Numbered from the stretch's first letter, positions 1,269 to 33,326 are shown. The stretch: DNA of 35,940 nucleotides from Candidatus Altiarchaeota archaeon (GCA_018221005.1 JAAOXW010000015.1:1-35940); one strand, 5' to 3'. The notes: generated by a model from the letters alone, not told the origin. A program made the numbers and translations.

Positions 1269-1913
1269 ATGTTGGACTTAGATAAGTTTGAATCAGATCG
1301 CCAAAATATATTTCTGCCTCGTTGGGACAAGCTAGAACAATACGTGGATCCGGAACAGTTATTTTTAGTAGGGCTAAAGTTGAAAGCGTCGACACTCGTG
1401 GATCTTCAGTTGCCCTTAAATCTTGAAATCATAGAAAATATGGATAAAAGTCTTCGCGATAGTCTTTTTGACGCCATTCCCTCTCTATGTGATGGGGGAG
1501 AAGCAAGAAGGGTTGTCTTTGAAACGTATAAACTCATTGGAGAAAAAATTCTTGACCCCATAAACAACATAGAAACTCCTGTGAAAGAAGGCCTTGTAAT
1601 AGCATATGCTGGAGTAATGTCACTTTTATTGGAATATCAATACTTACACGCCGAAGTTGAAGATGCCCATAACCAAGCGCTATGTGGTGTCAAGTATGGC
1701 CTTGAAATAAACGAGAACTTTGATAATTTTAATCCGAATATGCAAGCTGCATACGAAATAGTATGTGATCTTTACAAGGCAAGTGAGGACGGAGAACCCA
1801 AGGATATTGAAAAGATTTTTCAAGAAATACAATCTGCAGAAATGAACCAGATTCTTGTGGGCTCAAAAAAATTAATACCTTTTGGAGAAAGGACCGGGTC
1901 CCCATATAACTGA
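1269..1913 (+). CDS. hypothetical protein, paralog B of a tandem pair
   Basis: 214-aa ORF with an ATG start and its own TATA-like box. It is colinear with 591-1238. Confidence 0.65.
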   Translation: MLDLDKFESDRQNIFLPRWDKLEQYVDPEQLFLVGLKLKASTLVDLQLPLNLEIIENMDKSLRDSLFDAIPSLCDGGEARRVVFETYKLIGEKILDPINNIETPVKEGLVIAYAGVMSLLLEYQYLHAEVEDAHNQALCGVKYGLEINENFDNFNPNMQAAYEIVCDLYKASEDGEPKDIEKIFQEIQSAEMNQILVGSKKLIPFGERTGSPYN

Positions 1914-7375: not shown

Positions 7376-7684
7376 TCACAGATTTCTTTTGAGCCACGCC
7401 ATAAAACACGCATTGCCTTCAATGGGTTCAACTGCAACAATTGGACATTCATCACTGTGGATGGGTTTAATTACTTCAAGAATTTTGTCCTGAAAATCCC
7501 GTCGGGAAAATGCAGAGATGTGACAATCCTGTCGGGACAGAACTTCCCCCTTCCACCAGTAGTGGGACTCCCCCTCGGCAATGAAGGTGCCTGCAACCAG
7601 ATGCTTTTCAATGAGTAACTTCACCATAGCTCTGGCTTCTTCTTTATTGACAGCACTAATCAACATCTTACAAAATTCGACCAT
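7376..7684 (-). CDS. cutA: divalent-cation tolerance protein CutA
   Basis: 102 aa. LVAGTFIAEGESHYWWKGEV..., KT-like middle region and HSDECPIVAVEPIEGNACFMAWL follow the CutA1 pattern (LAACvn...S.Y.W.G.i...H.Y..PEi...g...Y..Wl). Confidence 0.8.
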   Translation of the reverse strand: MVEFCKMLISAVNKEEARAMVKLLIEKHLVAGTFIAEGESHYWWKGEVLSRQDCHISAFSRRDFQDKILEVIKPIHSDECPIVAVEPIEGNACFMAWLKRNL

Positions 7685-8309: not shown

Positions 8310-8942
8310 ATGGTCGAAATTAAAAAAGTAAGTTTGCCCAAATTATCGTATGACTACAATGCTCTTGAACCTGTGATTTCTGAAAAAGTAATGAAGTTGC
8401 ATCACACTAAGCACCATCAAGGTTATGTGAATGGAACTAATAGTATGCTTGGACTCCTCGAAAAACATCGCGCAGGAGATAAGTCAGTTGATCTTGGATC
8501 GATCCTGACTAAACTCAGTTTTCATATGAATGGCCACTTGATGCACAGTTTATTCTGGGAAAATATGCGGGCGCCAAGGGAAAACAATTCGCCCAGTAAG
8601 GAAGTAATAAGCAGAATGAAGCAACACTTCGGAAGTATGGAGCAATTCAAGAAGGAGTTTTCAGAGGCTGCAAAAGGTGTGGAAGGCAGTGGATGGGCAG
8701 TACTGGCAGTAAGGGATAAACTACCCCTGGTAATGCAAGTTCGCAACCACCAATTAATGCATATTGTAGGTGCAAAACCCCTATTGGTGCTGGATGTCTG
8801 GGAACACGCATACTACCTTGACTATGAAAATCGACGCGGGGACTTTGTAGACGCATTCTGGAAGCTTGTAGATTGGGATACCGTAGAAAAACGAATAAAA
8901 GAGTGTTGTTGTGGAACAGACAACGAGTGCAAGGGCCAATAA
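8310..8942 (+). CDS. sod: Fe/Mn superoxide dismutase with a Cys-rich C-terminal tail
   Basis: It carries LPKLSYDYNALEPVIS, KLHHTKHHQGYV, the His-rich FHMNGHLMHSLFW, and DVWEHAYYLDYENRR, which together give the canonical metal ligands. Confidence 0.9.
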   Translation: MVEIKKVSLPKLSYDYNALEPVISEKVMKLHHTKHHQGYVNGTNSMLGLLEKHRAGDKSVDLGSILTKLSFHMNGHLMHSLFWENMRAPRENNSPSKEVISRMKQHFGSMEQFKKEFSEAAKGVEGSGWAVLAVRDKLPLVMQVRNHQLMHIVGAKPLLVLDVWEHAYYLDYENRRGDFVDAFWKLVDWDTVEKRIKECCCGTDNECKGQ

Positions 8943-8996: not shown

Positions 8997-10358
8997 ATGG
9001 CGAAAAAAACGCACAGAGTTCTGTTATACTTGATGGTTGGGATTTTGCTCTACTCTCCCGGATGGGCCAGATTAACCATAATTGACGATTCGACAGGGGG
9101 GGACTGTCAACTGATTGGTAGTTGGAATAACAACACCAGTACCTGTACACTTAATGTGGATGTAACGGACGAAGTGCGAATCAACAGTAATGGAATTACA
9201 CTTGATGGCAATGGTCACAGTGTATCCGGAAGTGACGTTGGGGTTTTCGCAAGTGGGGTAGCACACATTGCGATAAGAAATTTCAGAATTTCAAATGTAA
9301 GCTATGGAATAAAACTCAGTGCAATAAGCTACAGCGACATACGGGGGAACATAATTATTGACGCGAGTGAAGAGGGAATTTACCTAAATGCACACAACAG
9401 CAACTTTACAGGAAACACGATTGTGAATACGGGTATTGGTATGAGTCTCAGTAGTTCGCGCCACAACTACATAGCGGGAAACAGTATTTCTGACAGTGAC
9501 TTTGCGATATACTTCTTCTTTTCAGACTTCAATAAAGTATATCAAAATGTTATCCGTAATAATGGGGAGGGGCTGTATCTAAACAGTGCCTCGGATAATT
9601 CAATATACAATAATAATTTTGTGAATAATGTTAACCAAAGTACCTACACAGGTTTTGCGAGCAATACCTATAATATGGCAGCCCCCATTGGAGGCAATTA
9701 CTGGAGTGACTGGACATCACCCGATTCAGATGGAGATGGTTTTGTTGACAGTGCCTATGTTTTTTCTGGAGGTCGAGATGAGCTACCCTGGACTATGATT
9801 GATGGGTGGGCACCCCCAGTGGCTGTAGATGCGGACGGGGATGGTTATGATGAATTGGATGATTGTGACGACAGTAATCCAGAAGTTAACCCAAGTGCAG
9901 AGGAAATTTGCGATAGTATTGACAACAACTGCGATGGGGTACTTGACCAAGTAGATAGTGACGGTGACGGAGTTAGTGATTGTTCCGTTGATAAGTGTCT
10001 TGGAACTGAAGATGAAGGCGCAGGGTGGAGGCGCTTACTTCCACGACACTATGCTGATGTTGACAATGACGGAATTTTTGAAACTCGGAAAGGTTGGAGA
10101 ACGCCCGCAACAGACAGTGATTATACTTTAGAGGACACATTAGGTTGCAACTGTGAACAAATATTAGAGCACTTCTCCGTGGGAAATAGATTTATGGCAG
10201 CCTTTGGATGCCCAAGGGGCGTAATGAGAACCTGGATTGCACAGAGCGGGTGGGCTAAAAGATACACGACCCTTCGAACAAGGGGTGGATTTGTGAAATT
10301 GAGTATGCCTTCTGAAATGTTTGGACTCACCCCACTTCTGTCAGGAATCCTTGAATGA
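8997..10358 (+). CDS. secreted NosD-like parallel beta-helix protein with a MopE-like Cys/Asp repeat (paralog 1)
   Basis: It has a signal-like N-terminus and ITLDGNGHSVSG, followed by repeated about 22-aa N/G/I-rich PbH1-type turns. GGNYWSDWTSPDSDGDGFVDSAYVFSGGRDELPW follows. Next comes DADGDGYDELDDCDDSNPEVNPSAEEICDSIDNNCDG, a putative metal-binding motif of the MopE type. The C-terminal 110 aa are shared with 10543-12006. Confidence 0.75.
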   Translation: MAKKTHRVLLYLMVGILLYSPGWARLTIIDDSTGGDCQLIGSWNNNTSTCTLNVDVTDEVRINSNGITLDGNGHSVSGSDVGVFASGVAHIAIRNFRISNVSYGIKLSAISYSDIRGNIIIDASEEGIYLNAHNSNFTGNTIVNTGIGMSLSSSRHNYIAGNSISDSDFAIYFFFSDFNKVYQNVIRNNGEGLYLNSASDNSIYNNNFVNNVNQSTYTGFASNTYNMAAPIGGNYWSDWTSPDSDGDGFVDSAYVFSGGRDELPWTMIDGWAPPVAVDADGDGYDELDDCDDSNPEVNPSAEEICDSIDNNCDGVLDQVDSDGDGVSDCSVDKCLGTEDEGAGWRRLLPRHYADVDNDGIFETRKGWRTPATDSDYTLEDTLGCNCEQILEHFSVGNRFMAAFGCPRGVMRTWIAQSGWAKRYTTLRTRGGFVKLSMPSEMFGLTPLLSGILE

Positions 10359-10542: not shown

Positions 10543-12006
10543 TTGTCTGATTGTATGGTGGATGTAACTTCAAAAATAATGGCGTTTCTTTTCGTTGGAC
10601 TTTTATTCTCAGTTCCTGCATGGGCAGCTTATTCTATTGTAGATGACGTAACGGGGGGAGCTTGCACAACTATTGGTACGTGGAATGCGGGAACCAAGAC
10701 GTGCACGCTCAACACAGATGTAACAGAACAAATTCAAATTGGTAGTAGTGGCATTGTACTTGATGGAAATGGTCACAGTGTGACTGGAAGCTCAGCTGGG
10801 GTGTCTGCAAGCAGAGTAACAGGTATTGTTGTGAAAAATCTCAAAGTCAGTGGCGCAACCAATGGAATTTTTCTAAATGGGAATTACAATAATATTACTG
10901 GGAATGAAATCGTAAATTGTGGTACGGGAATTAGTCTTAGTTCTGCAAACGACAATTTAATTTTTGAGAATAATGTTTCAAGCAATAACTACGGTATCTA
11001 TTTTTGGTCTTCTTCATTTAACCGAGTATACCGCAACACACTTGCAAGCAACACCTATGGGCTTTACTTGAATGGTGCTGCAGATAATGTAGTTTACAAT
11101 AATGATTTCTTAGGAAATACCAATCAAATTATTTACAGTGGTTATGCCAGCAATACCTATAACTTGGCTGCACCCGTTGGGGGAAATTATTTTAGTGACT
11201 GGAATTCTCCAGATACTGACGCTAACGGCTTTGTGGATTCGCCCTACACGTTTTCGGGCGGACTAGACAATTTACCATGGGCAACAATGACAGGATGGGA
11301 TTCTGCACCAGTAGATGCAGACGAGGACGGTTATGATGAAACGGTGGATTGTAACGACAATAATTCAACCATAAACCCAAATGCAACTGAAACTTGTGAT
11401 GGAATAGACAACAACTGTGATGGGAAGGTGGACGGAATTGATGCGGACGAAGACAGTTATACGGGAATTTGTGGGGATTGTAATGATACTAATTCAACCA
11501 TCAACCCAGGTGCAACTGAAAGTTGTGATGGAGTAGACAATGATTGTGATGGAACTGTGGATGAAGAGTGTGATGAGTGTAGTGATGATGAAGATGGCGA
11601 CGGCATTAATAATTGTGAAGACAAGTGCCCCGGAACTGAAACAGAAGGCGCTGCATGGAAACGACTACTCAATAAACGCTTTGCAGATGTTGATAACGAC
11701 GGCATCTTTGAAACTCGAAAGAAAAAGAAAGCGTCCATCATTGACAGCAAGTACAGTTTTGAGGATACCTTGGGTTGCAGTTGTGAACAAATCTTAGAGT
11801 ACATGCCCGGAAAAAATAAAGGTATGATGTCCTTTGGATGCACACGGAGCATCATGAATGCTTGGACCCATAAAAAGGGGTGGGCCAAAAAGTATGACTT
11901 TGAGTGGAAGGGCAAGTTCAACAAGTGGAAAGGGGACCACAAAGAATGGAAATGGAATCACAAAGGGAACAACGGGGATTCTGAAAAGTGTGATGATGAC
12001 GAATAG
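10543..12006 (+). CDS. secreted NosD-like parallel beta-helix protein with MopE-like Cys/Asp repeats (paralog 2)
   Basis: Same architecture as 8997-10358. It has two full DADEDxY...C(N/G)D.N..INP.ATE.CDG.DN(N/D)CDG repeats plus a third partial one. The track start is TTG 10543; ATG 10555 (MVDVTSKIMAFLFVGLLFSVPAWA) gives a cleaner signal peptide. Confidence 0.75.
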   Translation: MSDCMVDVTSKIMAFLFVGLLFSVPAWAAYSIVDDVTGGACTTIGTWNAGTKTCTLNTDVTEQIQIGSSGIVLDGNGHSVTGSSAGVSASRVTGIVVKNLKVSGATNGIFLNGNYNNITGNEIVNCGTGISLSSANDNLIFENNVSSNNYGIYFWSSSFNRVYRNTLASNTYGLYLNGAADNVVYNNDFLGNTNQIIYSGYASNTYNLAAPVGGNYFSDWNSPDTDANGFVDSPYTFSGGLDNLPWATMTGWDSAPVDADEDGYDETVDCNDNNSTINPNATETCDGIDNNCDGKVDGIDADEDSYTGICGDCNDTNSTINPGATESCDGVDNDCDGTVDEECDECSDDEDGDGINNCEDKCPGTETEGAAWKRLLNKRFADVDNDGIFETRKKKKASIIDSKYSFEDTLGCSCEQILEYMPGKNKGMMSFGCTRSIMNAWTHKKGWAKKYDFEWKGKFNKWKGDHKEWKWNHKGNNGDSEKCDDDE

Positions 12007-16802: not shown

Positions 16803-18746
16803 GTGCTCGCAAAAAACATAACTAAGCCCGCTACGTATCCTTCTGTGGGCAGATCTACTATACACTACATGCTTCCCGTCTACTTGATGTTCTTCTCATT
16901 TTTCTCAACAATAGTAGGTCTAAAGATATCACAAGTGTTTACTTCTCCTGAAATGTTCATAGATAGTGCGGCCCATGCTGCCGCAACTACAATTGAAAAT
17001 GTTTGTGCAGATGTTTTTGTAGAAAAAAATATTCCCTCACCCCCAGTGAGGAGTCAGTACCAAATTTCGCGTTGTGATGATGTTGCGGCGCGGACTACGG
17101 TGGGTGCGATATGGTTGGCGGCAGATGTTGCAGATCTTGCAAGTTCATTTCGTCGCGGTGGAATTGATGATTCTGCAGAAGCTACTACAACTGCCCTAAA
17201 TGTTATTGACTCGGGTGGCGACGCAACCCAAGCAATAAAAAAAGCCCTCAGTGCATCCTCAGGTGCCTCCGATGAATTAATACAAAATGGTAGAAAACTG
17301 TCTGCAAAAGGTGGTGAGGCGGGAAAAATTGGGGATGACTTGGTGGACTCGGGAGAAGAAATGAGATTAATACTTGACAGCCCTATGCTGAGTGATGATA
17401 TGAAAGTAATCGAGATGGCACAATACCATGAAAATGTAAAAGATGTCCTTAATTTACTCGAAACCCTTGAAGATGCCAATAGTGTAATGAAAGGTGTTTC
17501 ATTCACAAAATATCTTGTGCGAGATGGGGTTTATTTCTCAGGTAATATAATAAATAAGATTCGAGTGGTATCAAGAGCACCAAAAAGAGCGGTTGTGGCC
17601 ACTCGGCGTGTGGAAAGACCCATTGTTCATGCAACCCAATTCTTAATCTATAATATGGACTTCCTCCCCCTTGTAAACTTAGCACTTCCCACTCTCGAAG
17701 ACCTAAGTATGATTGTAAATGTTCTGAAAGGCCCGCACGTTGGGGTTCAGATATATCCACTAGTTGTTTCTTTGTTCAACATTAGTGATTTTGAGGCATT
17801 CAAGCCTTTCTCGGGCAGGGCTGCGAATATAAGTATAAAATACAATGAGTATGCGGCAGCCAATAGAACTGAGATGATTAGCTTACTAAAAAACCTAAGA
17901 TACTATTCCTCCGCAAACACTGTAAATTCCTTGAAGAATGAGGATATTTTTCCCCTGAGACGCGGAGACTACGTTTCCAGAGATTTAGTATACAATTTAT
18001 TTATCGACTTTGAAGAGCAAGTTGAAACCTACAAAGATAGTGGAAGTCTCTCAGTAGAGGAAGCAAATACTCTGTTGGAGGCTTCCGACGACTTACGATT
18101 TGAAATAATAAACACATCTTCTGATTTTGAAATGATTCGAGAAGAAGTAGGAAGTTGGAGTGTGAACGGTCTAACGGGTGGGCTCCTTGCACTAATGGGG
18201 AGTTTACAAGAAATAAGTGATGGACTTGAAGACATTGCAATGGAGTGGGAAACTTTTCAGAAAGAAGTAGGTCAGCATGTTGTAGGTGAGGGGGATTGTA
18301 ACGCCATAGACTTGTTATCAAGAGCCCCTGAATTGTCAGAACATTATTCCACTCTAAAGGTTGCAGACTGTGGTGTTGTTTTTGATTGTTATCCTGAAAG
18401 TCAGTGCATTGTTGGACTCCCTGTTGTTGAAGCAAACCCATGGATTCCATATTTACCCGTAGATGTACTTGATGCTAGTGAGATTGCAGAAGTTTCAACT
18501 TTAATTGGTTTTAGTTATGGGGCGGATACCAAGACCATGTCAACGGGATTCCTCAATACGTGCATGGGTAAGACTAAAGTTTTGGTATGTGCAAAAACGG
18601 GGGTCTTCAAGAGTTGTAGGGTAGTTGATTGTGGCAAGGAGTTAAACATAGAGTGGGAGTACAACCCAACCATTAAAGTTTCTAGTTCTGAAGACGGGGA
18701 CGGCAACCCAACGGTCACCGTAAAGGGTAACTTCTTAGAATGGTAA
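16803..18746 (+). CDS. large hypothetical membrane-anchored/secreted protein
   Basis: 647-aa ORF with a GTG start; ATG 16869 is an alternative. One N-terminal hydrophobic helix, LPVYLMFFSFFSTIVGLKISQVF, is followed by an Ala/Asp/Ser/Gly-rich segment. The C-terminal third contains Cys. I recognise no family. Confidence 0.6.
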   Translation: MLAKNITKPATYPSVGRSTIHYMLPVYLMFFSFFSTIVGLKISQVFTSPEMFIDSAAHAAATTIENVCADVFVEKNIPSPPVRSQYQISRCDDVAARTTVGAIWLAADVADLASSFRRGGIDDSAEATTTALNVIDSGGDATQAIKKALSASSGASDELIQNGRKLSAKGGEAGKIGDDLVDSGEEMRLILDSPMLSDDMKVIEMAQYHENVKDVLNLLETLEDANSVMKGVSFTKYLVRDGVYFSGNIINKIRVVSRAPKRAVVATRRVERPIVHATQFLIYNMDFLPLVNLALPTLEDLSMIVNVLKGPHVGVQIYPLVVSLFNISDFEAFKPFSGRAANISIKYNEYAAANRTEMISLLKNLRYYSSANTVNSLKNEDIFPLRRGDYVSRDLVYNLFIDFEEQVETYKDSGSLSVEEANTLLEASDDLRFEIINTSSDFEMIREEVGSWSVNGLTGGLLALMGSLQEISDGLEDIAMEWETFQKEVGQHVVGEGDCNAIDLLSRAPELSEHYSTLKVADCGVVFDCYPESQCIVGLPVVEANPWIPYLPVDVLDASEIAEVSTLIGFSYGADTKTMSTGFLNTCMGKTKVLVCAKTGVFKSCRVVDCGKELNIEWEYNPTIKVSSSEDGDGNPTVTVKGNFLEW

Positions 18747-18754
18747 GGCACACC

Positions 18755-19054
18755 TTACTTTGGTGAGTCGCCCATAATCTTCTTTTTCAAATCATCAGAC
18801 AATCTGTCGGGTGTCCATACAGGGTCAAATACAAGTTCAACTTCGGGCTCAAATCCGGCTTTCTTCACTTCCTTTTCCACATCCCCCGTTATTAACGAAC
18901 TGAGCGGACACATTGGTGTTGAAAGAGTCATCTTGATGTGTGCTTTCTTATCTTTCACTTTAACCTCGTATATGAATCCCAAATCGACTATGTTCACCCC
19001 TAACTCAGGGTCCAAAACTTCCTTCAATGCTTTCATTACTTTTTCTTTAGACAT
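18755..19054 (-). CDS. DUF59 (SufT/MIP18-type) Fe-S assembly-related protein
   Basis: MSKEKVMKALKEVLDPELGVNIVDLGFIYEVKV...HIKMTLSTPMCPLSS...VELVFDPVWTP matches the DUF59 pattern. AAGGAGTGA lies 5-13 nt upstream of the ATG (SD-like). The track ORF 18755-19459 is trimmed because its upstream part runs through the tRNA-Ser gene. Confidence 0.75.
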   Translation of the reverse strand: MSKEKVMKALKEVLDPELGVNIVDLGFIYEVKVKDKKAHIKMTLSTPMCPLSSLITGDVEKEVKKAGFEPEVELVFDPVWTPDRLSDDLKKKIMGDSPK

Positions 19055-19111
19055 CTTATCACTCCTTGCTTTTTGGTCGAGGTTTTTGCACCTTGCGGGG
19101 TGGAAAAAGCT

Positions 19112-19192
19112 CGCCAGGAAGGGGATTTGAACCCCTGATCCCAGAGGGACTCGCTTTCGAGGCGAGCGCCTTAACCACTCAGCCATCCTGGC
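19112..19192 (-). tRNA. tRNA-Ser (anticodon CGA)
   Basis: The reverse complement is GCCAGGATGGCTGAGTGGTTAAGGCGCTCGCCTCGAAAGCGAGTCCCTCTGGGATCAGGGGTTCAAATCCCCTTCCTGGCG. The acceptor stem is GCCAGGA/TCCTGGC and the anticodon stem is CTCGC/GCGAG. The loop CTCGAAA gives anticodon CGA. It has a 13-nt long variable arm (class II) and the T arm AGGGG-TTCAAAT-CCCCT. Confidence 0.85.
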
Positions 19193-19210
19193 AGGTGTTG
19201 TTGGGCAGGG

Positions 19211-19222
19211 TTTTTTTAAAAA
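19211..19222 (-). promoter_or_regulatory. TATA-like box for tRNA-Ser
   Basis: The reverse strand reads TTTTTAAAAAAA, centred about 24 nt upstream of the tRNA 5' end (19192). Confidence 0.5.
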
Positions 19223-19234
19223 GCTTGTTTTAGT

Positions 19235-19285
19235 CAAACCCCCGAAGGGGTTTGTTTTGATCAAACTCTCCTGCGGGAGAGCTTG
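19235..19285 (-). terminator. two stable hairpins immediately 3' of the giant gene
   Basis: On the reverse strand, CAAGCTCTCC-cgca-GGAGAGTTTG (19262-19285) starts 1 nt after the TAA. It is followed by CAAACCCC-uucg-GGGGTTTG (19235-19254), an 8-bp stem with a cUUCGg tetraloop. Whether they act in termination or in processing is not established. Confidence 0.45.
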
Positions 19286-19286
19286 T

Positions 19287-22200
19287 TTATTTGAACTGTC
19301 TGTAGTAACCCTTAAACTGCCCGCCCTGACGGTTGTAGTAACCTCGATTATATCCAGACCCATAATACCCTTGCAGGGGCATTCGGTAGGGATTGGTCTT
19401 CTTGACCTTTGAGAAAAATAACTTCCATACACTGAAACCCACACCCAAGATACCTGCAATACTCACTAAAAATTCAAAGGGTTCAAAGATAGTCCCATAA
19501 AGCTCACTCCCCTTAAACAAAGCAAGTGCATCCGCAAAGAAATTAGAAGATTTTACTACAACGGCTATTGTTCCAACATTTAAATCACCTGCTTGACTGC
19601 TACTAGCCAGAACATTAATATTATACGTTCCTTGGCTGCTGGCCTTGGCTCTTATTTCAATATCTTCAAATTCACCCGGGCTCAATTGCTTTCTCTTACT
19701 CCCCAACCAATTGGTTTCAATGCCTGCTGCAATTAAATCTAAATCTACAATCATGGGGACGTTACCTGTGTTTTCGATTGTGAAAGTCACAATCCCATAT
19801 TGACCAATTTTTATATCGTCAAAATTAACTTCGCTCACTGAAAGACTGCAAGTACAATCATTCGGGCTGTTCTCACAAGTTTCTCCCAAAACTAAATCAC
19901 ACTGTCCATTGTCTGAACAAGTATCTGCAGAACAATCAGAAAGACAAATTGAACATTCACCCTCTTCACAGACATTGTTGCCACATACATTAGCAAAGCA
20001 TCCCCGAGAATCTGATTGTGGGCTTGTGGGATTGCAAGATGCACCATAACATGAACAGTCACCACTGTTCTGGCAAGTCTCACCAATTAGAGTGCTGCAT
20101 GTGCCATCATCAATACATTGATCGAGAGTGCAGTCCTCCGTGCATGCGGAACACTCTCCAACTTGGCAAACACCATCCCCGCAACTTTCTGGAGTTTTGC
20201 AAACACTGGTTGTATCATCACAATAAAGGCCTGAACTGCATAATTCGCCACAAGCACAAACTTGTCCGCTTGCAAGTGGGGGGGAGCAGAGTCCCGCCCC
20301 AGAACAGAAGCCTGTTGGGCAAGTAGTTCCACACGCCAAATTAGCTTGGGCGCATTGTCCACCATCGCATACACCTTGGGTACAGTCATTGCTTGCAACA
20401 CAATCATCATCACTCATGCACGTTCCACTAAAAATTCCTGCGGAGGTACACATCAAACCCTCCACGTCCTCACCAAAATTATAATCAAGTCCACACTTCT
20501 TACAAACTCCTTCAGAGCAGGCACCGGACATGATATCGCAAAAGGTTTCACTCTCGATTGCCCACCCATTGTCAGTGCAGTAATAGACTTGACCTGCAAC
20601 GGTCATTGATTGACATAGATTGTCTGTAGTACACTCCACCCAAGTGCCTTGTGAACAAATAGTTCCTTCTTGAAGACCAGAATCAAAACATCCCGCATCC
20701 CAGCATTGTCCATAGTTACAGCAACCACTCGACTCCGCAGGGCCTTGAACGAGGGTGCTTCCAACAAAGAGGGAATTGTCCTGCCAGTTGTCTTGGTGGC
20801 AGTAGTAAGTAGTTGCCCCAATATCTAAAGAATCACAAGCGATTGTGCACATTTGTGCTCCGCCGTCTGCACAAGCATAAGTGCCATTAATTTCAAATTC
20901 GTCCTCTGCGTTATTTCCACAGCAGGTTGTGAGGTCAGTTTCACCTACCCAGTCCTTGCCACAGACTTCTTCACACATAGTTCTTGAGGTATCCCCTTGG
21001 GCTGCACACTCCTCATCTTCCCAAACTTCACCGTTGCAGATGAATTTGGTATCATCTCCATTTATGTTAAGGACTAAGTAGGTGTCCGGTGTTGTGCAAA
21101 CGTTCCAAATAGCGTCATCACTCAAGTATTCATTGAAGTATGTGCCTTTATTGCCGGTGGCAGAGTACCAGATATTATTGTGGCATAGTTCATTTCCATC
21201 CAAACCTTCATTAGCAGAGTAACAGCAAGCACCGTTCCAATCGTATGCTTCGGCTTCGCAAGCACCCTGACAACTGTCTATGGAGAGGGTTTGGGGTGTC
21301 CAGATGGAGCTGAGGCAGTAGTAGGTTTCGGCTTCAACATTTATGGTTGATGAACAGGAAGTTCCTGAACAGGTTTTTGGTACTCCATTCTCACAGGCAG
21401 CTCCTGTGGGCTCGCCATTAAGATAGGGAGTAATGTCATCTCCGGTTTCACAGCAGCCATTGTTTATCCATGACTTACTGCAACCAGTGCAATAATCCTC
21501 CCCAGAATCCAAACTGTGGGGCTCCCAGACCAACTTGCCACGTGTAAGATAAGTGACACATTTAGATGTGTTGTAGTTGTTCCCATTGAAGCAGCTCTGA
21601 TAAGAAGAAGTAGAATGTGTAGCTGAAACTTTGGTTTCGCCAGATAAGTAATATTCTGTAAGTTGCGTTGGTGAAACGCAAGTATCCTTGAATTCTATTT
21701 CGGAATCACAAACACCAGCGGTGCATTTCCCAGATGCTTCAATAACCTTGCCCGCCCTAAAGGGTTGATTTCCAATGTCTCCCACTTCTGAGGAACTTGA
21801 GCATGTCACCTCGTTCGCAGTATCCCACTGAGATCTTCCATATGTTGTGCTATACACACATTGAGTTTTTTCGCCGTTGCCATGGCAGCCCCAACTTCCT
21901 TTGTAATGGGTGCTGACACCATCTGGACAATAGTTGGGATCTGAGCAGACATAATTATTGTAATTCAGTTCAGCCACACATTTTTCACTGTAGCAATTTA
22001 AGTCTTGAGTGCAATCCTCTCCGTTTTTCAAAAGCCACTCACCGCAAGTTACAGAATCTCCAATCTTACAAACGTAAGTTATGCCGCTGACCGTGACGTC
22101 ATCATTGCCATCGTAGCACAGGTCCCCATAAACACAAGCCGATGTTTTGCCTTGAAGCTCACAATACTCAGAGTCGGAACTACAACCAGGAATTCCATCA

Positions 22201-23447
22201 CAAAAGCATTCTGTTCCAAGACCTCCTGTCGCTTCCCATACACCATCCACACAAGTGTAACCGCCACAGGTCTTCGCACCCCCAATAAGTTCAAGTCCGG
22301 AAGTACATTCTTTTATGGTTCCCAAATCACAACAAAAACTACCATCAACAACCCCACTTTCATCTGAATTGCAACAATTTATGGTGCTGGCCAACCATTC
22401 ACCTGTGCTAAGGCATGTGCATGCCGTTGGACTTAAATCTGAATTGGCGGTCCAAGAGCCAGAATTGCAAAACAAATCATCTCCAAAATTTTCGCAGCTT
22501 TGGTCGCCATAACAAGTGCTGCTATATACACAATCATCACTTCCAGCACAACAAGCGTCGTCATTAGAATCAGGAGAGCAACCGCCAGAACAGGCTCTGC
22601 TCAACCAATATTCACTTGCGGCATTACCACAACAAGCATCAGTTCCAAAATATTTGATACCTTTATCACCTAAAGTTTGGTCAGTGCAATCCTCACAAAC
22701 ACTTCCCGCATCTTCGGCACAATCACTACATGCATTAGAGGAAGAAGCCCATCCAGAGGATGAACAGTAGTACGTCCCTTCATCAGTACCCAAATCAATA
22801 GTCATTTCACTGCAAGTATATAATGAATAAGTGCAAGGCTTTGGTTGGCCTGAATTGCAACCATAGTATATTGAGTTGTAAACGCCATCTTCCAAATAAT
22901 AGTCCGTAGTATCGTCACAACACGCAGTTCCTGTCCACGTTTTTCCTTCGTCGACGCAGGCAGCGGGACAACTTTCATGAACATTATCTGCAGATACCCA
23001 AGCGCCGGAGTAACAGTAGAGCTTTACATCTGCGGTAACGGAATCACAGTCCCCTTTTTGAGTTCCTTTGTCAGCAACACCACAACTGTAAAGTGTTCCG
23101 CTCGCACATGCATATTTTCCGGTGTGAAAACTTCTTGAACCTGAACAGGTTGCCCAAACGGAATCAAAACAAAAGTAAGGGCCAGCAGCCCAAAGCTCAC
23201 CAATAAACGTGGCTTCGTTTTGAGACTCACAAACGGGACCTCCCGCAGTATCCGTACAAGTCATTGAAATTCTGTCATCGTCATAAATTACGCTTGGGGC
23301 ACAATCGATAGAACAATCCTCGGAATCGCACTCATCTGCACAGTAATAGCCAGTTTTAGGAAAACAATCAAAAGAGAAACCAATTTCCGTAAACAAACCA
23401 AAAAAGAACACTAAAAACAAAACGGAGAACACAGCTTGCCTTTTCAC
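19287..23447 (-). CDS. giant Cys-rich modular surface protein with a C-terminal TM anchor
   Basis: 1386 aa with a GTG start, 25 nt from a TATA-like box. The signal-like N-terminus is MKRQAVFSVLFLVFFFGLFTEIGFS. By my hand count there are 138 Cys, all within aa 28-1200. CC-containing and (T/V)YYCxxxxW motifs recur. A CARDB-like beta-sandwich segment (VNFDDIKIGQYGIVTFTIENTGNVPMIVDLDL...) is followed by the TM helix FLVSIAGILGVGFSVWKLFF and a Gly/Tyr/Arg tail. Confidence 0.85.
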   Translation of the reverse strand: MKRQAVFSVLFLVFFFGLFTEIGFSFDCFPKTGYYCADECDSEDCSIDCAPSVIYDDDRISMTCTDTAGGPVCESQNEATFIGELWAAGPYFCFDSVWATCSGSRSFHTGKYACASGTLYSCGVADKGTQKGDCDSVTADVKLYCYSGAWVSADNVHESCPAACVDEGKTWTGTACCDDTTDYYLEDGVYNSIYYGCNSGQPKPCTYSLYTCSEMTIDLGTDEGTYYCSSSGWASSSNACSDCAEDAGSVCEDCTDQTLGDKGIKYFGTDACCGNAASEYWLSRACSGGCSPDSNDDACCAGSDDCVYSSTCYGDQSCENFGDDLFCNSGSWTANSDLSPTACTCLSTGEWLASTINCCNSDESGVVDGSFCCDLGTIKECTSGLELIGGAKTCGGYTCVDGVWEATGGLGTECFCDGIPGCSSDSEYCELQGKTSACVYGDLCYDGNDDVTVSGITYVCKIGDSVTCGEWLLKNGEDCTQDLNCYSEKCVAELNYNNYVCSDPNYCPDGVSTHYKGSWGCHGNGEKTQCVYSTTYGRSQWDTANEVTCSSSSEVGDIGNQPFRAGKVIEASGKCTAGVCDSEIEFKDTCVSPTQLTEYYLSGETKVSATHSTSSYQSCFNGNNYNTSKCVTYLTRGKLVWEPHSLDSGEDYCTGCSKSWINNGCCETGDDITPYLNGEPTGAACENGVPKTCSGTSCSSTINVEAETYYCLSSIWTPQTLSIDSCQGACEAEAYDWNGACCYSANEGLDGNELCHNNIWYSATGNKGTYFNEYLSDDAIWNVCTTPDTYLVLNINGDDTKFICNGEVWEDEECAAQGDTSRTMCEEVCGKDWVGETDLTTCCGNNAEDEFEINGTYACADGGAQMCTIACDSLDIGATTYYCHQDNWQDNSLFVGSTLVQGPAESSGCCNYGQCWDAGCFDSGLQEGTICSQGTWVECTTDNLCQSMTVAGQVYYCTDNGWAIESETFCDIMSGACSEGVCKKCGLDYNFGEDVEGLMCTSAGIFSGTCMSDDDCVASNDCTQGVCDGGQCAQANLACGTTCPTGFCSGAGLCSPPLASGQVCACGELCSSGLYCDDTTSVCKTPESCGDGVCQVGECSACTEDCTLDQCIDDGTCSTLIGETCQNSGDCSCYGASCNPTSPQSDSRGCFANVCGNNVCEEGECSICLSDCSADTCSDNGQCDLVLGETCENSPNDCTCSLSVSEVNFDDIKIGQYGIVTFTIENTGNVPMIVDLDLIAAGIETNWLGSKRKQLSPGEFEDIEIRAKASSQGTYNINVLASSSQAGDLNVGTIAVVVKSSNFFADALALFKGSELYGTIFEPFEFLVSIAGILGVGFSVWKLFFSKVKKTNPYRMPLQGYYGSGYNRGYYNRQGGQFKGYYRQFK

Positions 23448-23466
23448 ATAAAATCTAAGCTTCGGC

Positions 23467-23477
23467 GGTATTTTTAC
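23467..23477 (-). promoter_or_regulatory. TATA-like box for the giant gene
   Basis: The reverse strand reads gtaaaaatacc, centred about 25 nt upstream of the GTG at 23447. Confidence 0.45.
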
Positions 23478-23483
23478 TTTACT

Positions 23484-25739
23484 CTAGGTTGAAATCTGGG
23501 CTGTCTGGAATCTTCCTTTACTCTCAATCAAGTAAGGTAAATATTTAATTGATTTGAAAGAAGAAGCAACCCTGTTTGCAGCGTAAGCTGTCATTGCCGG
23601 ACCTACTGCAAAGAAGGCGTACGCCCCCTTTGTGAGCTGTGTGGCGGCATTAAGTGCTTTTTCTGCCACGGGAACCTCGGCCATTGCTTCTGACAAGTCT
23701 AGTTGGTACTCTTTCTGGAGGCCGTGTAATCTTTGTATTTCATTCAAATGACCTGCGAGAACTTGCTGGTAGGTTGCAATTTCAGACAAATCATTCACAA
23801 CATTCTGGCTTTCAATGTTGAAATCATTAGCGAGATTGTATTGCTCAAGGGCCGCCTCGTATTGTGCATAATATCTGTTGATGTACTCATCGCTCGTAAT
23901 GCCCATGTCCTCATAAAGATATCTTGCAAGAGCATATTCATTCACTGGCGCATCCGGATCGAGGGTGTTTAAAGTGTCTGGATCCATGTCTATTTCACCA
24001 TCGTTATCCAAATCCCAGTCTTCAATATAATCCAGTAAGCCATCACCATCCATATCCATTTTTTCGAGCCCCAACTCATTCCAAGTCACATATGTACCCT
24101 GAAGGTCTGCTTGAACTTGTTCAAAGGCAGTTTGAACTTCATCAGAGTAAGTGGTGTACATTGCCATTGAGTCTTGGTCATTAATCTGCCAAATCACCTT
24201 ACCATCACCGTCTTCAACAAAGGTAATGTCAGTAACTCCGTCATTATCCAAATCCCAATCGCCATTTTCGGTGTCAGGAACCCACTCACCATCAACTTTC
24301 TTTAATTTGTAGTCTGCTTTTCCATCGCCATCACTATCAATGAAGAGATTGTCAATAGTGTCCATGATTTCCATTGCGGCTTCATATTTGGCGTGTGCTA
24401 CGAGCCAGTCACCATATTTCTCATTTATTAACGGATCGGTCGTAATGCCCATATCTTCAAATAAGTATCTTGAAAGCGCTTCTTCATTTACGGGCGCATC
24501 CGGATCGAGGGTGTTTAAAGTGTCTGGATCCATGTCTATTTCACCATCGTTATCCAAATCCCAGTCTTCTTCATAATCAATCAGGCCATCTCCATCAATA
24601 TCAGCAACCGCCATGAATTCTGCCATGTAAGTATCATATTGCGCCACTAGGTCTTCGTGCCTTCCGGCACTAATTTCTGCGAGTAGTCGGAGTCTGCCCC
24701 CAGTACCCGAATATTCATCACCTAATTCTTGTTCGGCTAAATCCATAATACCTTGGACTCTTTGAACTTCCGCCTGGGCACCATCATATACACCTTGAGC
24801 CAACATCATTCGTCTCCAAGTGACCCACCATGCAACGGCTGCTGCACCCAGTCCAAAAATAACTGCGGGAACAACTGCCTTCCATTTGACTTTCTTTTCT
24901 TTCTCAAGCGCTTTAACCATGAGTTTCTTATTACCAAGAGGAATCTCACCATAGTTAGTCAGTTGGTCGATTTCACTCTGCATAGTTCCAAGGACTGAAT
25001 TCGCAAGAATTCCTGCTGCATCGCTTTCATATGAAAAAATCACATCGGGAGTTCTACCTGCATTCACAGCAGCTCTAAATTCATCATTAAGTAAAGTGTA
25101 AACATCAGTTCTTGCGGCTTTTTCAAGAGAAAATATTTTATCCTGAACTTTTTTAGTTGTCTTATAACTTTTCAAAAAGTCCTTTCTCAATTTTTTATTG
25201 AAGTCTTGAATCTCCCCTTTGAGCTTACTGATTTGCCCCCTCATCTTCTTGCGGGCTTTTCTTTTGGCCCCCCTCTTTTCAGGAGTATCAATCCACTCAG
25301 AAAGAATTTTCTTATTTTTGGTCCTAAGTGTCTGGAAATATGTGTTTATGTCGCTCTTTAGTTTCTGTCTCTGACCTTCGCCTTCGGTGAGAGAGTGATT
25401 AAGTTTCCCAACTAACTTATCATCCAAAAGCTGGAAGTTGAGCACATATGCGTCTTTTTCAAGAACTTCTGCAGTCTCAGCCCTTGAGTCTTTCAATGAA
25501 AGTCGATAATCTTTATTTTTCAACTCGCCAACCAAACGCCCTTCGGGGCGTCCAGACCACTTATTTTCTATGGGGTCCATGAGAATTCCTTCATCGAAAT
25601 CAAGCTCTTCTTGTTTGAAATGTGCTGCAATTGCAGGATCAATGTTCCTCCAAAAAAGGTTGGCAAAGTAAAAATCAGAATATTGTGCAGTCTCACCGGG
25701 TCGAGTAGTTGCCCTGTGCGTCTGTGTAGTTACCGACAT
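23484..25739 (-). CDS. two-TM coiled-coil protein with extracytoplasmic EF-hand/TSP3-like calcium-binding loops
   Basis: 751 aa. The N-terminal part is Lys/Glu-rich and coiled-coil-like. TM1 is AVVPAVIFGLGAAAVAWWVTW. The following 390-aa Asp-rich domain has DIDGDGLIDYEE (canonical DxDxDGxIxxxE), DLDNDGEIDMD, DSDGDGKADY, DLDNDGVTDI, EDGDGKV and DMDGDGLLDYIE. TM2 is GAYAFFAVGPAMTAYAA, near the C-terminus. Confidence 0.8.
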   Translation of the reverse strand: MSVTTQTHRATTRPGETAQYSDFYFANLFWRNIDPAIAAHFKQEELDFDEGILMDPIENKWSGRPEGRLVGELKNKDYRLSLKDSRAETAEVLEKDAYVLNFQLLDDKLVGKLNHSLTEGEGQRQKLKSDINTYFQTLRTKNKKILSEWIDTPEKRGAKRKARKKMRGQISKLKGEIQDFNKKLRKDFLKSYKTTKKVQDKIFSLEKAARTDVYTLLNDEFRAAVNAGRTPDVIFSYESDAAGILANSVLGTMQSEIDQLTNYGEIPLGNKKLMVKALEKEKKVKWKAVVPAVIFGLGAAAVAWWVTWRRMMLAQGVYDGAQAEVQRVQGIMDLAEQELGDEYSGTGGRLRLLAEISAGRHEDLVAQYDTYMAEFMAVADIDGDGLIDYEEDWDLDNDGEIDMDPDTLNTLDPDAPVNEEALSRYLFEDMGITTDPLINEKYGDWLVAHAKYEAAMEIMDTIDNLFIDSDGDGKADYKLKKVDGEWVPDTENGDWDLDNDGVTDITFVEDGDGKVIWQINDQDSMAMYTTYSDEVQTAFEQVQADLQGTYVTWNELGLEKMDMDGDGLLDYIEDWDLDNDGEIDMDPDTLNTLDPDAPVNEYALARYLYEDMGITSDEYINRYYAQYEAALEQYNLANDFNIESQNVVNDLSEIATYQQVLAGHLNEIQRLHGLQKEYQLDLSEAMAEVPVAEKALNAATQLTKGAYAFFAVGPAMTAYAANRVASSFKSIKYLPYLIESKGRFQTAQIST
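23947..24023 (-). repeat. 77-bp perfect intragenic direct repeat, copy 2 (protein order)
   Basis: Identical to 24493-24569. It encodes EDWDLDNDGEIDMDPDTLNTLDPDAP. Confidence 0.85.
24493..24569 (-). repeat. 77-bp perfect intragenic direct repeat, copy 1 (protein order)
   Basis: Identical to 23947-24023. The offset is 546 bp (182 codons, in frame). Confidence 0.85.
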
Positions 25740-31441: not shown

Positions 31442-32392
31442 TTAGCCGATGTCACGACGATTAAAAATCAAAATGCCAAGGCCTACTAGTAAGAGTGGTA
31501 TTAAGACCCATTTCAAGAAGGAGTGACCAAGGCTGTGGTAAGTTACCATCTGAAGACTCTGAAGAATAAAACCGTGGTCATAGTCAATTAGGAGTCCACC
31601 TTCGGGAACTACAAAGGTTCCAGTAAATGTGCCCACCACCATTTGAACAAAGGGAACTAACCGAGTTCCAACGACTTCAAGGGCCCCAACAAATACGTTG
31701 CCAAGGTCATAACCCAAATCAATTTTGTCGAGCATAAAACTCTCATAGACTCCTGCATCACGGGCAGCTCCACGGATGGGAATGAAAACAAAGAACGTGA
31801 GTACAAGAATAAGAATCATTGGAACTAAAGCCTTCATCCTGCTCGAAAACATAGTGGACAACGCCGCAGACATTGAACCAAAAATCAATGAAACAAAGAC
31901 TGAATAGAAAGTCAGGATGGGGAAAAGTGAAAGAACCCGGAAGAGTGAATAGAAATCAAGGCCAAAAAATGATGCCCAAAGATAAATTGACGCAAACAGT
32001 GAAAGAGCAGAAAGCATGAGGGCAGAAAGGGAAAATGCTAAAAATTTTGAGAGAAGGAGGCTGACTCTCTTAATGGGTTTGCTGACCATCATTAGCAGAG
32101 TGCCATCAGCTTCTTCTTGAGCTACAAAGGACGAACAAATCAAGGAGGACATAATGGCAGGTGCAATACCACAGACCCATACAAAGGCAAAAATTAGGAA
32201 GAAACCAATGAGAAACTCAGTTTTTAAGGCCATTCCTAAATTGGAGAACATTTGGGCCTCTTTGGAAACATTGACAAACAAAAACTGAGGCAGGAGCACA
32301 ACTACCAAATAAATCAACACTCGTTTCAAATTAAGTGCATCTGAAAGTGTCTTCTTGAAGATGGCTTTATTTATTAAGTCCATGATTTTCAC
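31442..32392 (-). CDS. ABC-2-type transporter permease
   Basis: 316 aa with about 6 hydrophobic helices. Its start overlaps the upstream ATPase gene by 26 nt. Confidence 0.7.
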   Translation of the reverse strand: MKIMDLINKAIFKKTLSDALNLKRVLIYLVVVLLPQFLFVNVSKEAQMFSNLGMALKTEFLIGFFLIFAFVWVCGIAPAIMSSLICSSFVAQEEADGTLLMMVSKPIKRVSLLLSKFLAFSLSALMLSALSLFASIYLWASFFGLDFYSLFRVLSLFPILTFYSVFVSLIFGSMSAALSTMFSSRMKALVPMILILVLTFFVFIPIRGAARDAGVYESFMLDKIDLGYDLGNVFVGALEVVGTRLVPFVQMVVGTFTGTFVVPEGGLLIDYDHGFILQSLQMVTYHSLGHSFLKWVLIPLLLVGLGILIFNRRDIG

Positions 32393-33326
32393 CCTCCGCT
32401 TTTTCGATTACTTTCATAAATATATTTTCCAGGGACATAGTGAATGGCGCAAATTCAGTAAGGTCTTGTTCATGCCCTTTGAATGCTGAAAACAAGGCCT
32501 TCTTGAAGGACAAGGGATTTTTGACAGTTGCCTCAATCTTCATGTGCTGGTTCATCCAAGCTTTCTCAACACCGTTAAGCCCGGATATGGTCTTCATAAA
32601 CTTTTCATTGTTGGTTGTATCCACCACAAAATGTTTTTCTGAAAATTTCTTGCGAAGCTCAGTCATATCCCCTTGCATAATCGCATTACCTTTATTCACA
32701 ATTGCCACATGATCCACAACCTTCTCAAGCTCTTGAAGGATGTGACTGCTCACGAAAATAGTTTTATTTTGTTTAGTAGCAAGGGCACGAATTTTGTCGA
32801 GAACCTCATGCCTTCCAATGGGATCTAAATTCGCCGTTGGTTCATCAAGAATTAAAATTTCGGGGTCATGAATTAGTGCCTGTACAATACTCAGCTTCTG
32901 CTTCATCCCTGAACTAAAGTTTCTGGCATTTCTGTCACGGAAATTTTCAAGCCCCATCCAAGCCAGCAACTCATCTGCTTTGCTTCGCGCCTCTTTCTGT
33001 GGCATGCCGCATAATTTAGCACTGTAAACTAAGAAATCAACGGCAGACATGGAGTAAAAGTTAGGGTGCTCTGACGAATATCCAATACTTGCCTTTGCCT
33101 TCACAGTGCCCGCAGAATGCCCAAGAATACTTGCCTTTCCCTTAGTTGCCCTCATAGCACCTACAAGCATTTTTATTGTGGTGGTCTTGCCGGCACCATT
33201 GGGGCCAATAAAACCGTATACAGTTCCTTTTTCGATTGAGAGATTGAGGTTATTAACGGCGGTGAGCCTCTTTCCAAACCTACCAAAGATTTTAGTCAAA
33301 TTGACTGTTTCTATTGCGTTTTCCAT
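32367..33326 (-). CDS. ABC transporter ATP-binding protein
   Basis: It has Walker A GPNGAGKTT, a signature-like FSSGMKQKLSIVQAL, Walker B ILILDEPTANLD and the H-loop VSSHIL, plus a C-terminal accessory domain of about 90 aa. Confidence 0.9.
   Translation of the reverse strand: MENAIETVNLTKIFGRFGKRLTAVNNLNLSIEKGTVYGFIGPNGAGKTTTIKMLVGAMRATKGKASILGHSAGTVKAKASIGYSSEHPNFYSMSAVDFLVYSAKLCGMPQKEARSKADELLAWMGLENFRDRNARNFSSGMKQKLSIVQALIHDPEILILDEPTANLDPIGRHEVLDKIRALATKQNKTIFVSSHILQELEKVVDHVAIVNKGNAIMQGDMTELRKKFSEKHFVVDTTNNEKFMKTISGLNGVEKAWMNQHMKIEATVKNPLSFKKALFSAFKGHEQDLTEFAPFTMSLENIFMKVIEKAEGENHGLNK

Follow-up and report, generated by a model that had tools for sequence, protein, structure and literature searches.

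Peribacteria, ultra-small and presumably symbiotic bacteria of the Candidate Phyla Radiation (CPR), encode large extracellular proteins of more than 1000 aa that carry a signal peptide, contain 7% or more Cys and are without functional annotation; these proteins vary between strains and have been proposed to act in rigidity or attachment (Anantharaman et al. 2016, PMC4736985). Among DPANN archaea, the Undinarchaeota have been inferred to be host-dependent, and LamG and Ig proteins are their proposed adhesion proteins (PMC7414124). Here we analyze GOV00_01285, a gene of a Candidatus Altiarchaeota archaeon that lies on the minus strand at positions 19287–23447 of a 35,940-nt stretch of DNA (GCA_018221005.1, JAAOXW010000015.1:1–35940; hereafter the window). 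With a confidence somewhat better than even, we read its Cys-rich product as a disulfide-braced surface rod, with a conserved stalk and anchor and a variable tip, that serves in cell contact or adhesion.

GOV00_01285 resembles the Peribacteria proteins in coming from an ultra-small, presumably symbiotic prokaryote, and it likewise exceeds 1000 aa, has a signal peptide, contains at least 7% Cys, matches no known domains and belongs to a small-genome organism, although these features delimit a descriptive class and do not denote homology. The Peribacteria genes are bacterial and form a 14-gene cluster, whereas GOV00_01285 is a single archaeal gene with a Cys-free partner. No sequence relationship to them was detected, in that all 49 matches of the HMMER search described below belong to the family itself, to two LamG proteins or to carriers of the anchor cassette; the likeness is one of description, no direct homology search having been made. 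A second likeness is to the variant-specific surface proteins (VSPs) and high-cysteine membrane proteins of Giardia and the cysteine-rich membrane proteins (CRMPs) of Spironucleus (PMC3916229), which are also type I proteins with an ectodomain of ~10–12% Cys, a conserved C-terminal transmembrane (TM) helix and a short, conserved basic tail in the cytoplasm; the VSPs sit on the surface of a host-associated organism. However, the VSPs are eukaryotic and multigene, with hundreds of copies and expression switching, and they are dominated by CxxC and end in a CRGKA or KKxKK tail, whereas GOV00_01285 has 6 CxxC motifs and a 41-aa Tyr/Gly/Arg-rich tail. Membership in the VSP family was rejected, since no Pfam VSP model was matched and both the CxxC richness and the tail motif are absent, which leaves an analogy. 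Ultra-small symbionts were already known to have large, Cys-rich extracellular proteins, and what is new here is a domain family within this kind.

The reading frame runs uninterrupted over 4161 nt from a GTG start to a TAA stop and encodes 1386 aa, the length of the product that NCBI lists as ‘MAG: hypothetical protein GOV00_01285 [Candidatus Altiarchaeota archaeon]’, where MAG denotes a metagenome-assembled genome. Cys accounts for 138 of the 1386 residues (9.96%), all located from aa 28 to aa 1200, and this recount agrees with the figures in an initial annotation of the DNA by a model; the window's 27 other open reading frames (ORFs) average 1.1% Cys. Hydropathy analysis revealed a hydrophobic N-terminus (aa 1–25) and a single TM helix (aa 1323–1345), and the net charge is −145 for the ectodomain and +9 for the 41-aa tail. 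This charge distribution, together with the signal-like segment and the one TM helix, identifies a type I protein. The architecture is the one given in the initial annotation: the ectodomain is secreted, modular and rich in Cys, it closes towards the membrane with two 10-Cys modules and an Ig-like domain, and one TM helix and a short tail complete the protein. The gene is real and intact, and its product has an exported type I topology. The metagenome-assembled contig, the GTG start and the low-complexity-looking composition could make one suspect a chimeric assembly, an over-called ORF or a pseudogene, but such an origin is scarcely credible: six independent assemblies hold full-length relatives that are collinear from the N-terminus to the tail, the long open frame is accompanied by conserved neighbors and a conserved upstream element, no DNA-level repeats were found inside the gene, and its G+C content is like that of its surroundings. 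The collinear relatives and the conserved synteny dispose of the chimera that the initial annotation had named as a way in which it could be wrong.

The Cys-rich repeats had been described as unplaceable in any family, and our searches of Pfam-A, NCBIfam and the PDB, which gave no significant sequence or fold match, bear this out. With the whole protein, Pfam-A and NCBIfam returned nothing above cut-off and just weak Ig-like matches (choice_anch_D, HYDIN Ig) at aa 1200–1287. When ten separate fragments were scanned against family models, the best match was to DUF7107 at aa 986–1084 (E = 0.007; 17.1 bits vs. a cut-off of 24.6), so that no described domain family is matched by the Cys-rich parts, whole or in fragments. 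Stig1 or MXAN_6577-like models were matched in just 3 of 48 relatives, and Pfam CW_binding was matched by neither the protein nor its fragments. A sequence search of the PDB with the protein found no match, nor did a search with a module profile. The module profile (alignment A4) also found nothing in a collection of 5.8 billion proteins, but that search missed P0002, a protein that carries the module, and is therefore no evidence of absence. A description of this protein family was not found in the literature. The Cys-rich proteins of an Asgard mobile-element paper proved to be small viral nucleases and unrelated, and the sole viral match to a degenerate CCGDDxxEY DNA pattern (IMG/VR, L009, 6553–6579) lies in the wrong frame of a phage tail-fibre-like gene and was dismissed as chance. 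The family, its three module types, its reusable anchor cassette and its conserved partner gene were not found in the databases and literature that we searched.

To define the family, aa 1–1200 were compared with 1.84 billion cluster representatives using HMMER (E ≤ 1e-3). The 49 matches fall into three groups: collinear relatives, proteins that share a ‘CCGDD-type’ module, and proteins that share the membrane anchor cassette. Seven proteins besides the query are collinear relatives (P0003–P0009), of which P0003–P0007 comprise 1201–1481 aa and P0009 is a short form of 537 aa; P0008 is truncated and clusters with P0051, a protein of 1264 aa. All of these relatives share one layout, in which 8.6–9.8% of the residues are Cys and the two 10-Cys modules and the Ig-like domain come before the TM helix and a conserved tail. 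Nearly all of their clusters have a single member, and the family amounts to ~8 clusters among 15 billion proteins. The MAGs in question are labeled Undinarchaeota or Altiarchaeota, and although the NCBI label of the source organism is Altiarchaeota, the closest relative of the protein in a named genome carries an Undinarchaeota label. Only four further loci came from scanning the species genomes of GTDB and the metagenomes of JGI, among them L002 (titled ‘Candidatus Undinarchaeota archaeon’) and L003 (‘Candidatus Altiarchaeota archaeon isolate DPANNHV_H2.bin.121’); in the sampling to date, the family is therefore restricted to a rare DPANN lineage. The survey of homologs and length variation proposed in the initial annotation thus yields collinear relatives of ~1200–1480 aa whose distal half gains and loses modules.

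Conservation was calculated over six full-length members, with query positions as reference. Cys positions are 58–100% identical and other residues 12–47%; both values climb from the N-terminus to the membrane, with the Cys reaching 100% in the 10-Cys modules, and gaps cluster in aa 26–365. Alignments A1, A4 and A6 are without conserved stretches of 7–10 residues. The pattern is the signature expected of a disulfide scaffold with fast-evolving surfaces and a variable distal end. It divides the protein into regions, all encoded on the minus strand. The signal peptide (aa 1–25, MKRQ followed by a hydrophobic core; 23373–23447), recognized by hydropathy, is present in the relatives as well. The distal Cys-rich half (aa 26–640; 21528–23372) is made of divergent W..CC..YYCxxxGW-type hairpin modules that, as judged from alignment A1 and from collinearity, have been inserted or deleted between relatives; its Cys identity is 33–70% vs. 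12–16% for other residues, with 14–61% gaps. It contains the best-defined CCGDD-type module (aa 264–351; 22395–22658), which is 46% identical to repeats of P0002 and is further supported by profile iteration and alignment A4, with the pattern CCG..EYW..C..C...DDACC...CVY..CY...C....CNSGSW....C.C....W. The conserved Cys-rich core (aa 641–985; 20493–21527) consists of four hairpin modules that bear CC doublets and YYCxxxGW (Cys identity 80–89%), and is followed by a Cys-rich spacer (aa 986–1084; 20196–20492) that is weakly Stig1/DUF7107-like and whose Cys are 95% conserved. Next come the two tandem 10-Cys modules (aa 1085–1200; 19848–20195), an internal duplicate with 100% conserved Cys and the consensus CGDGxCxxGECSxCPxDCxLxxCxGDGxCxxxxGENCxNSxDCxC, and the Ig-like (CARDB/PapD-like) β-sandwich (aa 1201–1300; 19548–19847). 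A juxtamembrane helix and the single TM helix (aa 1301–1345; 19413–19547) lead to the cytoplasmic basic Tyr/Gly/Arg-rich tail (aa 1346–1386; 19287–19412, including the stop codon). The tail, conserved in the family, has the pattern NPY..YYGSGY.RGYY.RQGGQFKGYYRQFK and ends in ...GYYRQFK; in the relatives it reads NPY...YYG..Y.RGYY..QGGQFRGYYRQFK, and the family consensus can also be written NPY..GYY..QGGQFRGYY. By this comparison, the protein has a conserved stalk and anchor and a variable tip.

Every motif quoted in the initial annotation was found, namely the CC doublets at aa 176, 272, 665, 741, 842 and 909, to which three more (aa 299, 358 and 372) bring the total to nine, and the (Y/L)YCxxxxW motifs at aa 143, 226, 709, 881 and 955. 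The modules built on them are real repeats, albeit ancient and divergent ones. The two 10-Cys modules are clearly duplicates as judged by alignment of aa 1089–1133 with aa 1155–1200 (Smith-Waterman score of 161, whereas the best of 1500 shuffled comparisons scored 59). The upstream W..CC...YYCxxxGW modules give weak direct scores in pairwise comparison (60–71 vs. a shuffled 99.9th percentile of 56), but profile-profile comparison of family sub-alignments relates them at 74–94% probability, and an off-diagonal BLAST match connects aa 132–338 with the region of a relative equivalent to aa ~700–914 (E = 2.5e-5). Moreover, the CCGDD module is 40–46% identical to 5–8 tandem copies in P0002 and P0020, and hidden Markov model iteration counts 1–3 copies of it in each family member. 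The profile-profile probabilities, the off-diagonal matches and the tandem copies in P0002 and P0020 together argue for a common ancestry of the upstream modules.

P0002 and P0020, like the LamG proteins of Undinarchaeales (arCOG07813, PMC7414124), are archaeal and have a signal peptide, and at 9–10% Cys they match the composition of the query. What they have in common with GOV00_01285 is the CCGDD module only, an ~85-aa CCG(D/N)..EY..ACC..CVY..CY..YCNSGxW unit; they lack the 10-Cys/Ig/TM/tail cassette, end in LamG, and hold 5–8 well-conserved copies of the module vs. one clear copy in the query. At the P0002 locus, on an archaeal contig from the Rifle aquifer (L001, 351–6356), the LamG giant adjoins a second LamG protein and a T2SSE/T2SSF set; this set is archaeal type-IV-pilus-like, and the host is another DPANN archaeon. 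Disulfide-rich giant surface proteins had been called unexpected for an archaeon, which overstates the case given these 9–10% Cys giants of other DPANN archaea, and the claim is further weakened by the roughly 40 proteins that share the anchor cassette, by the Cys-rich proteins of CPR Peribacteria (PMC4736985) and by an Fe/Mn superoxide dismutase encoded in the window, which is consistent with exposure to oxygen.

The cassette sharers match the query at aa ~985–1300 only. The cassette consists of 1–6 copies of the 10-Cys module and the Ig-like domain, in many cases together with a TM helix and with a basic tail rich in Tyr, Gln, Gly and Arg. The 10-Cys module itself occurs in ~45 representative proteins, in 1–6 copies each, and has no Pfam match. 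The heads above the cassette differ and include LamG, BNR/sialidase, transglutaminase, FGE-sulfatase and TPR domains (P0010–P0049). The combination ‘10-Cys + Ig + TM + Tyr-rich tail’ looks like an unnamed surface-display anchor. An archaeosortase substrate was rejected, as no sorting-signal model was matched and the TM helix is followed by a 41-aa tail rather than by a few residues.

We modeled two regions with AlphaFold2 (AF2). The anchor region (aa 1085–1320, 15 sequences) was predicted with a mean predicted local distance difference test (pLDDT) score of 85. The 10-Cys modules show little regular secondary structure (pLDDT 78–90), and aa 1202–1299 form a β-sandwich with a pLDDT >90, followed by the juxtamembrane helix. 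Foldseek matched the sandwich to the NBR1 FW domain, FixG-related domains, domain III of Fsx1 and HAP2, PmoB, the HYDIN PapD-like domain and CARDB (3idu), with E-values from 3e-6 to 3e-4 (CARDB 3idu: E = 2.7e-4, TM-score of 0.59–0.63 on the target), and a profile of the anchor region matched the CARDB domain of PF1109 (2kl6/3idu) in the PDB at E = 0.004. The sandwich thus has the same fold as CARDB (PF07705; PF1109 of Pyrococcus furiosus), PapD-like/ASH and choice-of-anchor D domains, while other Ig-like folds match it equally well or better than CARDB. By contrast, GOV00_01285 has no match to Pfam CARDB even at E ≤ 10, and the relative P0010 reaches 22.2 bits against a gathering cut-off of 22.7. 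Hence, the ‘CARDB-like’ assignment of the initial annotation stands for the fold but not for membership in the Pfam family.

Among the Foldseek matches of the Ig-like domain are archaeal Fusexin1 (7p4l, E = 1e-5) and domain 3 of HAP2 (9yc3, 5ow3), and a Cys-rich ectodomain, an Ig-like domain III, a stem, a TM helix and a basic tail compose a layout like that of class II fusogens. DPANN archaea need intimate host contact (PMC11291902), and a device for membrane interaction or fusion could serve it. Such a device is nevertheless very improbable here. The Fusexin1 and HAP2 matches score no better than those to generic Ig-like domains (NBR1, FixG-related, CARDB, PapD-like), the model of the Cys-rich core (aa 640–1000, which excludes aa 26–640) matches no fusogen domain I or II, and no fusion-loop-like segment was identified.

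The core model, built from a 6-sequence alignment, is of moderate quality (mean pLDDT 67, predicted TM-score 0.38). It consists entirely of β-hairpins, with a pLDDT of 80–91 over aa ~860–960. Foldseek found no match to it with E < 0.01 in the PDB and BFVD; the weak top matches were the combined repetitive oligopeptides (CROPs) of TcdA, TcdB and TcsH, and DSR-E (E = 0.028–0.15, probability ≤ 0.21). The predicted modules, like CROPs, glucansucrase glucan-binding repeats and cell-wall-binding repeats, are stacked aromatic-rich β-hairpins with a YY.xxxGxW turn, but all of those repeats are without disulfides, unlike the disulfide-braced modules proposed here. Structure prediction followed by Foldseek, as the initial annotation had suggested, therefore leaves the core without a significant fold match, and just the membrane-proximal domain resembles a known, Ig/CARDB-like fold.

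Directly upstream of GOV00_01285, on the same strand and 36 nt apart, lies a partner gene (23484–25739, minus strand) for a protein of 751 aa and no Cys. The protein lacks a signal peptide; a basic N-terminal stretch of 285 aa is followed by an N-in TM segment (aa 286–308), an acidic outer domain of ~390 aa with six DxDxDG Ca-binding-like loops, a hydrophobic C-terminal segment and a basic end; the gene contains an internal direct repeat of 179 nt (23878–24056 and 24424–24602, 85% identical). An upstream same-strand gene of the same layout occurs at 6 of 6 loci (the window, L002, L003, L007, L008 and L010), the other five encoding proteins of 451–712 aa with 0–1 Cys. Homology among these partners defines two subgroups, one in which the window and L002 match at ~3e-52 and L008 matches L002 weakly, and one of L003, L007 and L010 (~1e-20). 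Among the 5.8 billion proteins of the collection, the partner matched only itself. To judge from these comparisons, the partner sequence is evolving too fast for homology to be detected beyond the two subgroups.

The gene order downstream of GOV00_01285 is the same in L006 as in the window (FeS-assembly protein, SIS protein, PFOR), and this conserved synteny therefore points to a chromosomal, orthologous core gene and not to a mobile element. A conserved 33-nt element, AAAGTAAAAATAC...GCTTA..TTT, lies just before the start codon (23448–23480, minus strand) and aligns with L002 (2892–2924) and L006 (~234–266); within it, GTAAAAATAC is invariant at all three loci and lies at 23467–23476, 20–29 nt before the start codon. 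The element is probably an archaeal TATA box of a leaderless or short-leader mRNA, and its position in L006 implies that translation there truly starts at a GTG, 15 nt ahead of the TTG that had been called. Past the stop codon, two G+C-rich stem-loops and a T5 run (19218–19281, minus strand) mark the probable end of the transcript. Beyond them, 94 nt downstream of the Cys-rich gene, is tRNA-Ser(CGA) (19111–19193, minus strand). The listed 234-aa ORF at 18755–19459 is over-extended across this tRNA, and the real FeS-assembly gene is its 3′ part.

In the mechanism that we favor, the protein, as read from its sequence, is exported by its N-terminal signal peptide and anchored by the one C-terminal TM helix, with the basic Tyr/Gly/Arg-rich tail in the cytoplasm. 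The acidic ectodomain of ~1300 aa is predicted to be a chain of small β-hairpin modules braced by up to 69 disulfides, which would make it a stiff, protease-resistant rod. The even number of Cys (138) and their identity, which far exceeds that of other residues, support a structural role for them. The membrane-proximal third (Cys-rich spacer, two 10-Cys modules, Ig-like domain, TM helix and tail) forms the conserved stalk and anchor, a cassette reused under other heads by many related archaeal proteins, while the distal two thirds diverge fast and gain or lose modules, as expected of an exposed end that contacts ligands. The rod would act in contact with, or adhesion to, a surface or a partner cell, with glycans as possible targets, and it probably works with the upstream Cys-free membrane protein and its Ca-binding-like loops. 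A role as an adhesin or host-interaction protein, as first suggested in the initial annotation, is plausible and fits both the pattern of conserved stalk and variable tip and the DPANN affiliation of the organism. It agrees with the adhesion proposed for LamG and Ig proteins in Undinarchaeota, with the presence of the CCGDD module in LamG giants beside pilus-like genes, and with the analogous proteins of Peribacteria.

Several points weigh against the adhesive rod. The function is assigned from architecture and analogy, the Cys-rich core model is just moderate, and CROPs and glucansucrase repeats, the hairpin repeats that bind carbohydrates, resemble it at a non-significant level. Disulfide formation is only assumed, because no disulfide-forming enzyme (DsbA, VKOR or a thioredoxin-like protein) was found in the window. 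Homology of the partner is detectable only within the two subgroups. Finally, a single-copy syntenic orthologue with a fixed partner would fit a core part of the envelope at least equally well.

This last point leads to a comparison with SlaA and SlaB of Sulfolobales, where, as in this locus, two adjacent genes encode an outer protein of large size and a partner anchored in the membrane, although no sequence or domain similarity connects the two systems and both proteins of the present pair have their own membrane anchors. GOV00_01285 might accordingly be the main envelope protein, an S-layer-like coat or canopy, with the upstream bitopic protein as the membrane base of a two-component, disulfide-cross-linked layer. 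We regard this as unlikely, though it is the main rival: the gene is apparently present in one copy at a conserved syntenic position, the partner gene recurs at every locus compared, the gene has its own conserved promoter-like box, and the very acidic ectodomain, the C-terminal TM anchor and the size are typical of archaeal S-layer proteins. The description of the Undinarchaeota makes no mention of an S-layer protein (PMC7414124), and the Sulfolobales are known to have two-component layers that include a stalk protein (cited in 10.1101/2021.04.28.441871). However, no S-layer family model was matched in Pfam or NCBIfam, nor was any C-terminal sorting-signal model (PGF-CTERM etc.). The N-X-S/T sequons of N-glycosylation are strongly depleted, with 2 observed vs. 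13.1 expected and none of 2000 shuffles as low. Characterized archaeal S-layer proteins are usually heavily glycosylated, and to our knowledge none approaches 10% Cys. The sequons are depleted in four relatives too, while P0007 (25 vs. 11.9 expected) and P0008 are enriched, a contrast that suggests a lineage-specific difference in surface glycosylation. In addition, the anchor cassette bears enzyme- or lectin-like heads elsewhere, which fits display better than a lattice.

The Cys could instead serve as metal or sulfide ligands, the protein acting as an extracellular metal-binding or detoxifying sponge, or as a redox buffer, in a metal-rich vent habitat. Such a role would draw on the 10% Cys and the very acidic ectodomain, on relatives from hydrothermal-vent DPANN bins (isolate name DPANNHV), and on neighbors in the window: two secreted NosD/right-handed β-helix proteins with MopE-type putative copper-binding motifs (10 and 19 Cys), encoded in tandem at 8997–10358 and 10543–12006 (plus strand), near CutA1 (7376–7684, minus strand) and the Fe/Mn superoxide dismutase (8310–8942, plus strand). 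It is improbable nonetheless, as metal-chelating spacings are scarce (6 CxxC and 5 CxC among 138 Cys) and, as in disulfide scaffolds, the Cys count is even and the positions are fixed in aromatic-rich β-hairpin modules. No metal-binding family is matched in GOV00_01285, and a metallothionein-like sponge in particular was set aside as unlikely.

Besides CutA1 and the superoxide dismutase, the window encodes archaeal-type GAPDH, PGK and PFOR. Another candidate surface protein, an FG-GAP repeat protein of 858 aa with a C-terminal TM helix (33311–35887, minus strand), adjoins an ABC-2 transporter pair (31442–33326). Two tandem paralogous ORFs (591–1238 and 1269–1913, plus strand; 215 and 214 aa) share almost the same N-terminus (LD.D.YE.DRQ..FLPRWDKL) and match no Pfam family. 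An ORF of 647 aa (16803–18746, plus strand) has an N-terminal hydrophobic segment and no Pfam match, and a 521-aa ORF, likewise without a Pfam match, occupies the corresponding place in L006.

DPANN archaea depend on cell contact, and for most of their lineages, including Undinarchaeota, no attachment or envelope protein is known. The locus is a candidate for a conserved two-gene surface module with a defined stalk and anchor and a variable tip. The rod and its Cys-free partner with Ca-binding-like loops could constitute a lineage-specific two-protein apparatus, either the primary organ of attachment to host or substrate or the whole disulfide-cross-linked coat of Undinarchaeota-like DPANN archaea, with shuffling of the distal hairpin modules setting partner specificity; we advance this tentatively, as possible rather than probable. 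If it is true, the ‘10-Cys x N + Ig + TM + Tyr-rich tail’ cassette would be a general, as yet unnamed display anchor of DPANN surface proteins. The protein would also imply that these archaea form dozens of extracytoplasmic disulfides. The CCGDD-type hairpin module, the 10-Cys module and the Tyr-rich tail anchor are domain types not described before, and profile models of the three would improve the annotation of many giant proteins now called ‘hypothetical’ in DPANN genomes. The practical value is for the present limited, since none of these organisms is in culture and current data contain extremely few members of the family. GOV00_01285 is one of many uncharacterized giant surface proteins in uncultivated lineages, yet it offers a concrete candidate for a poorly known phylum.

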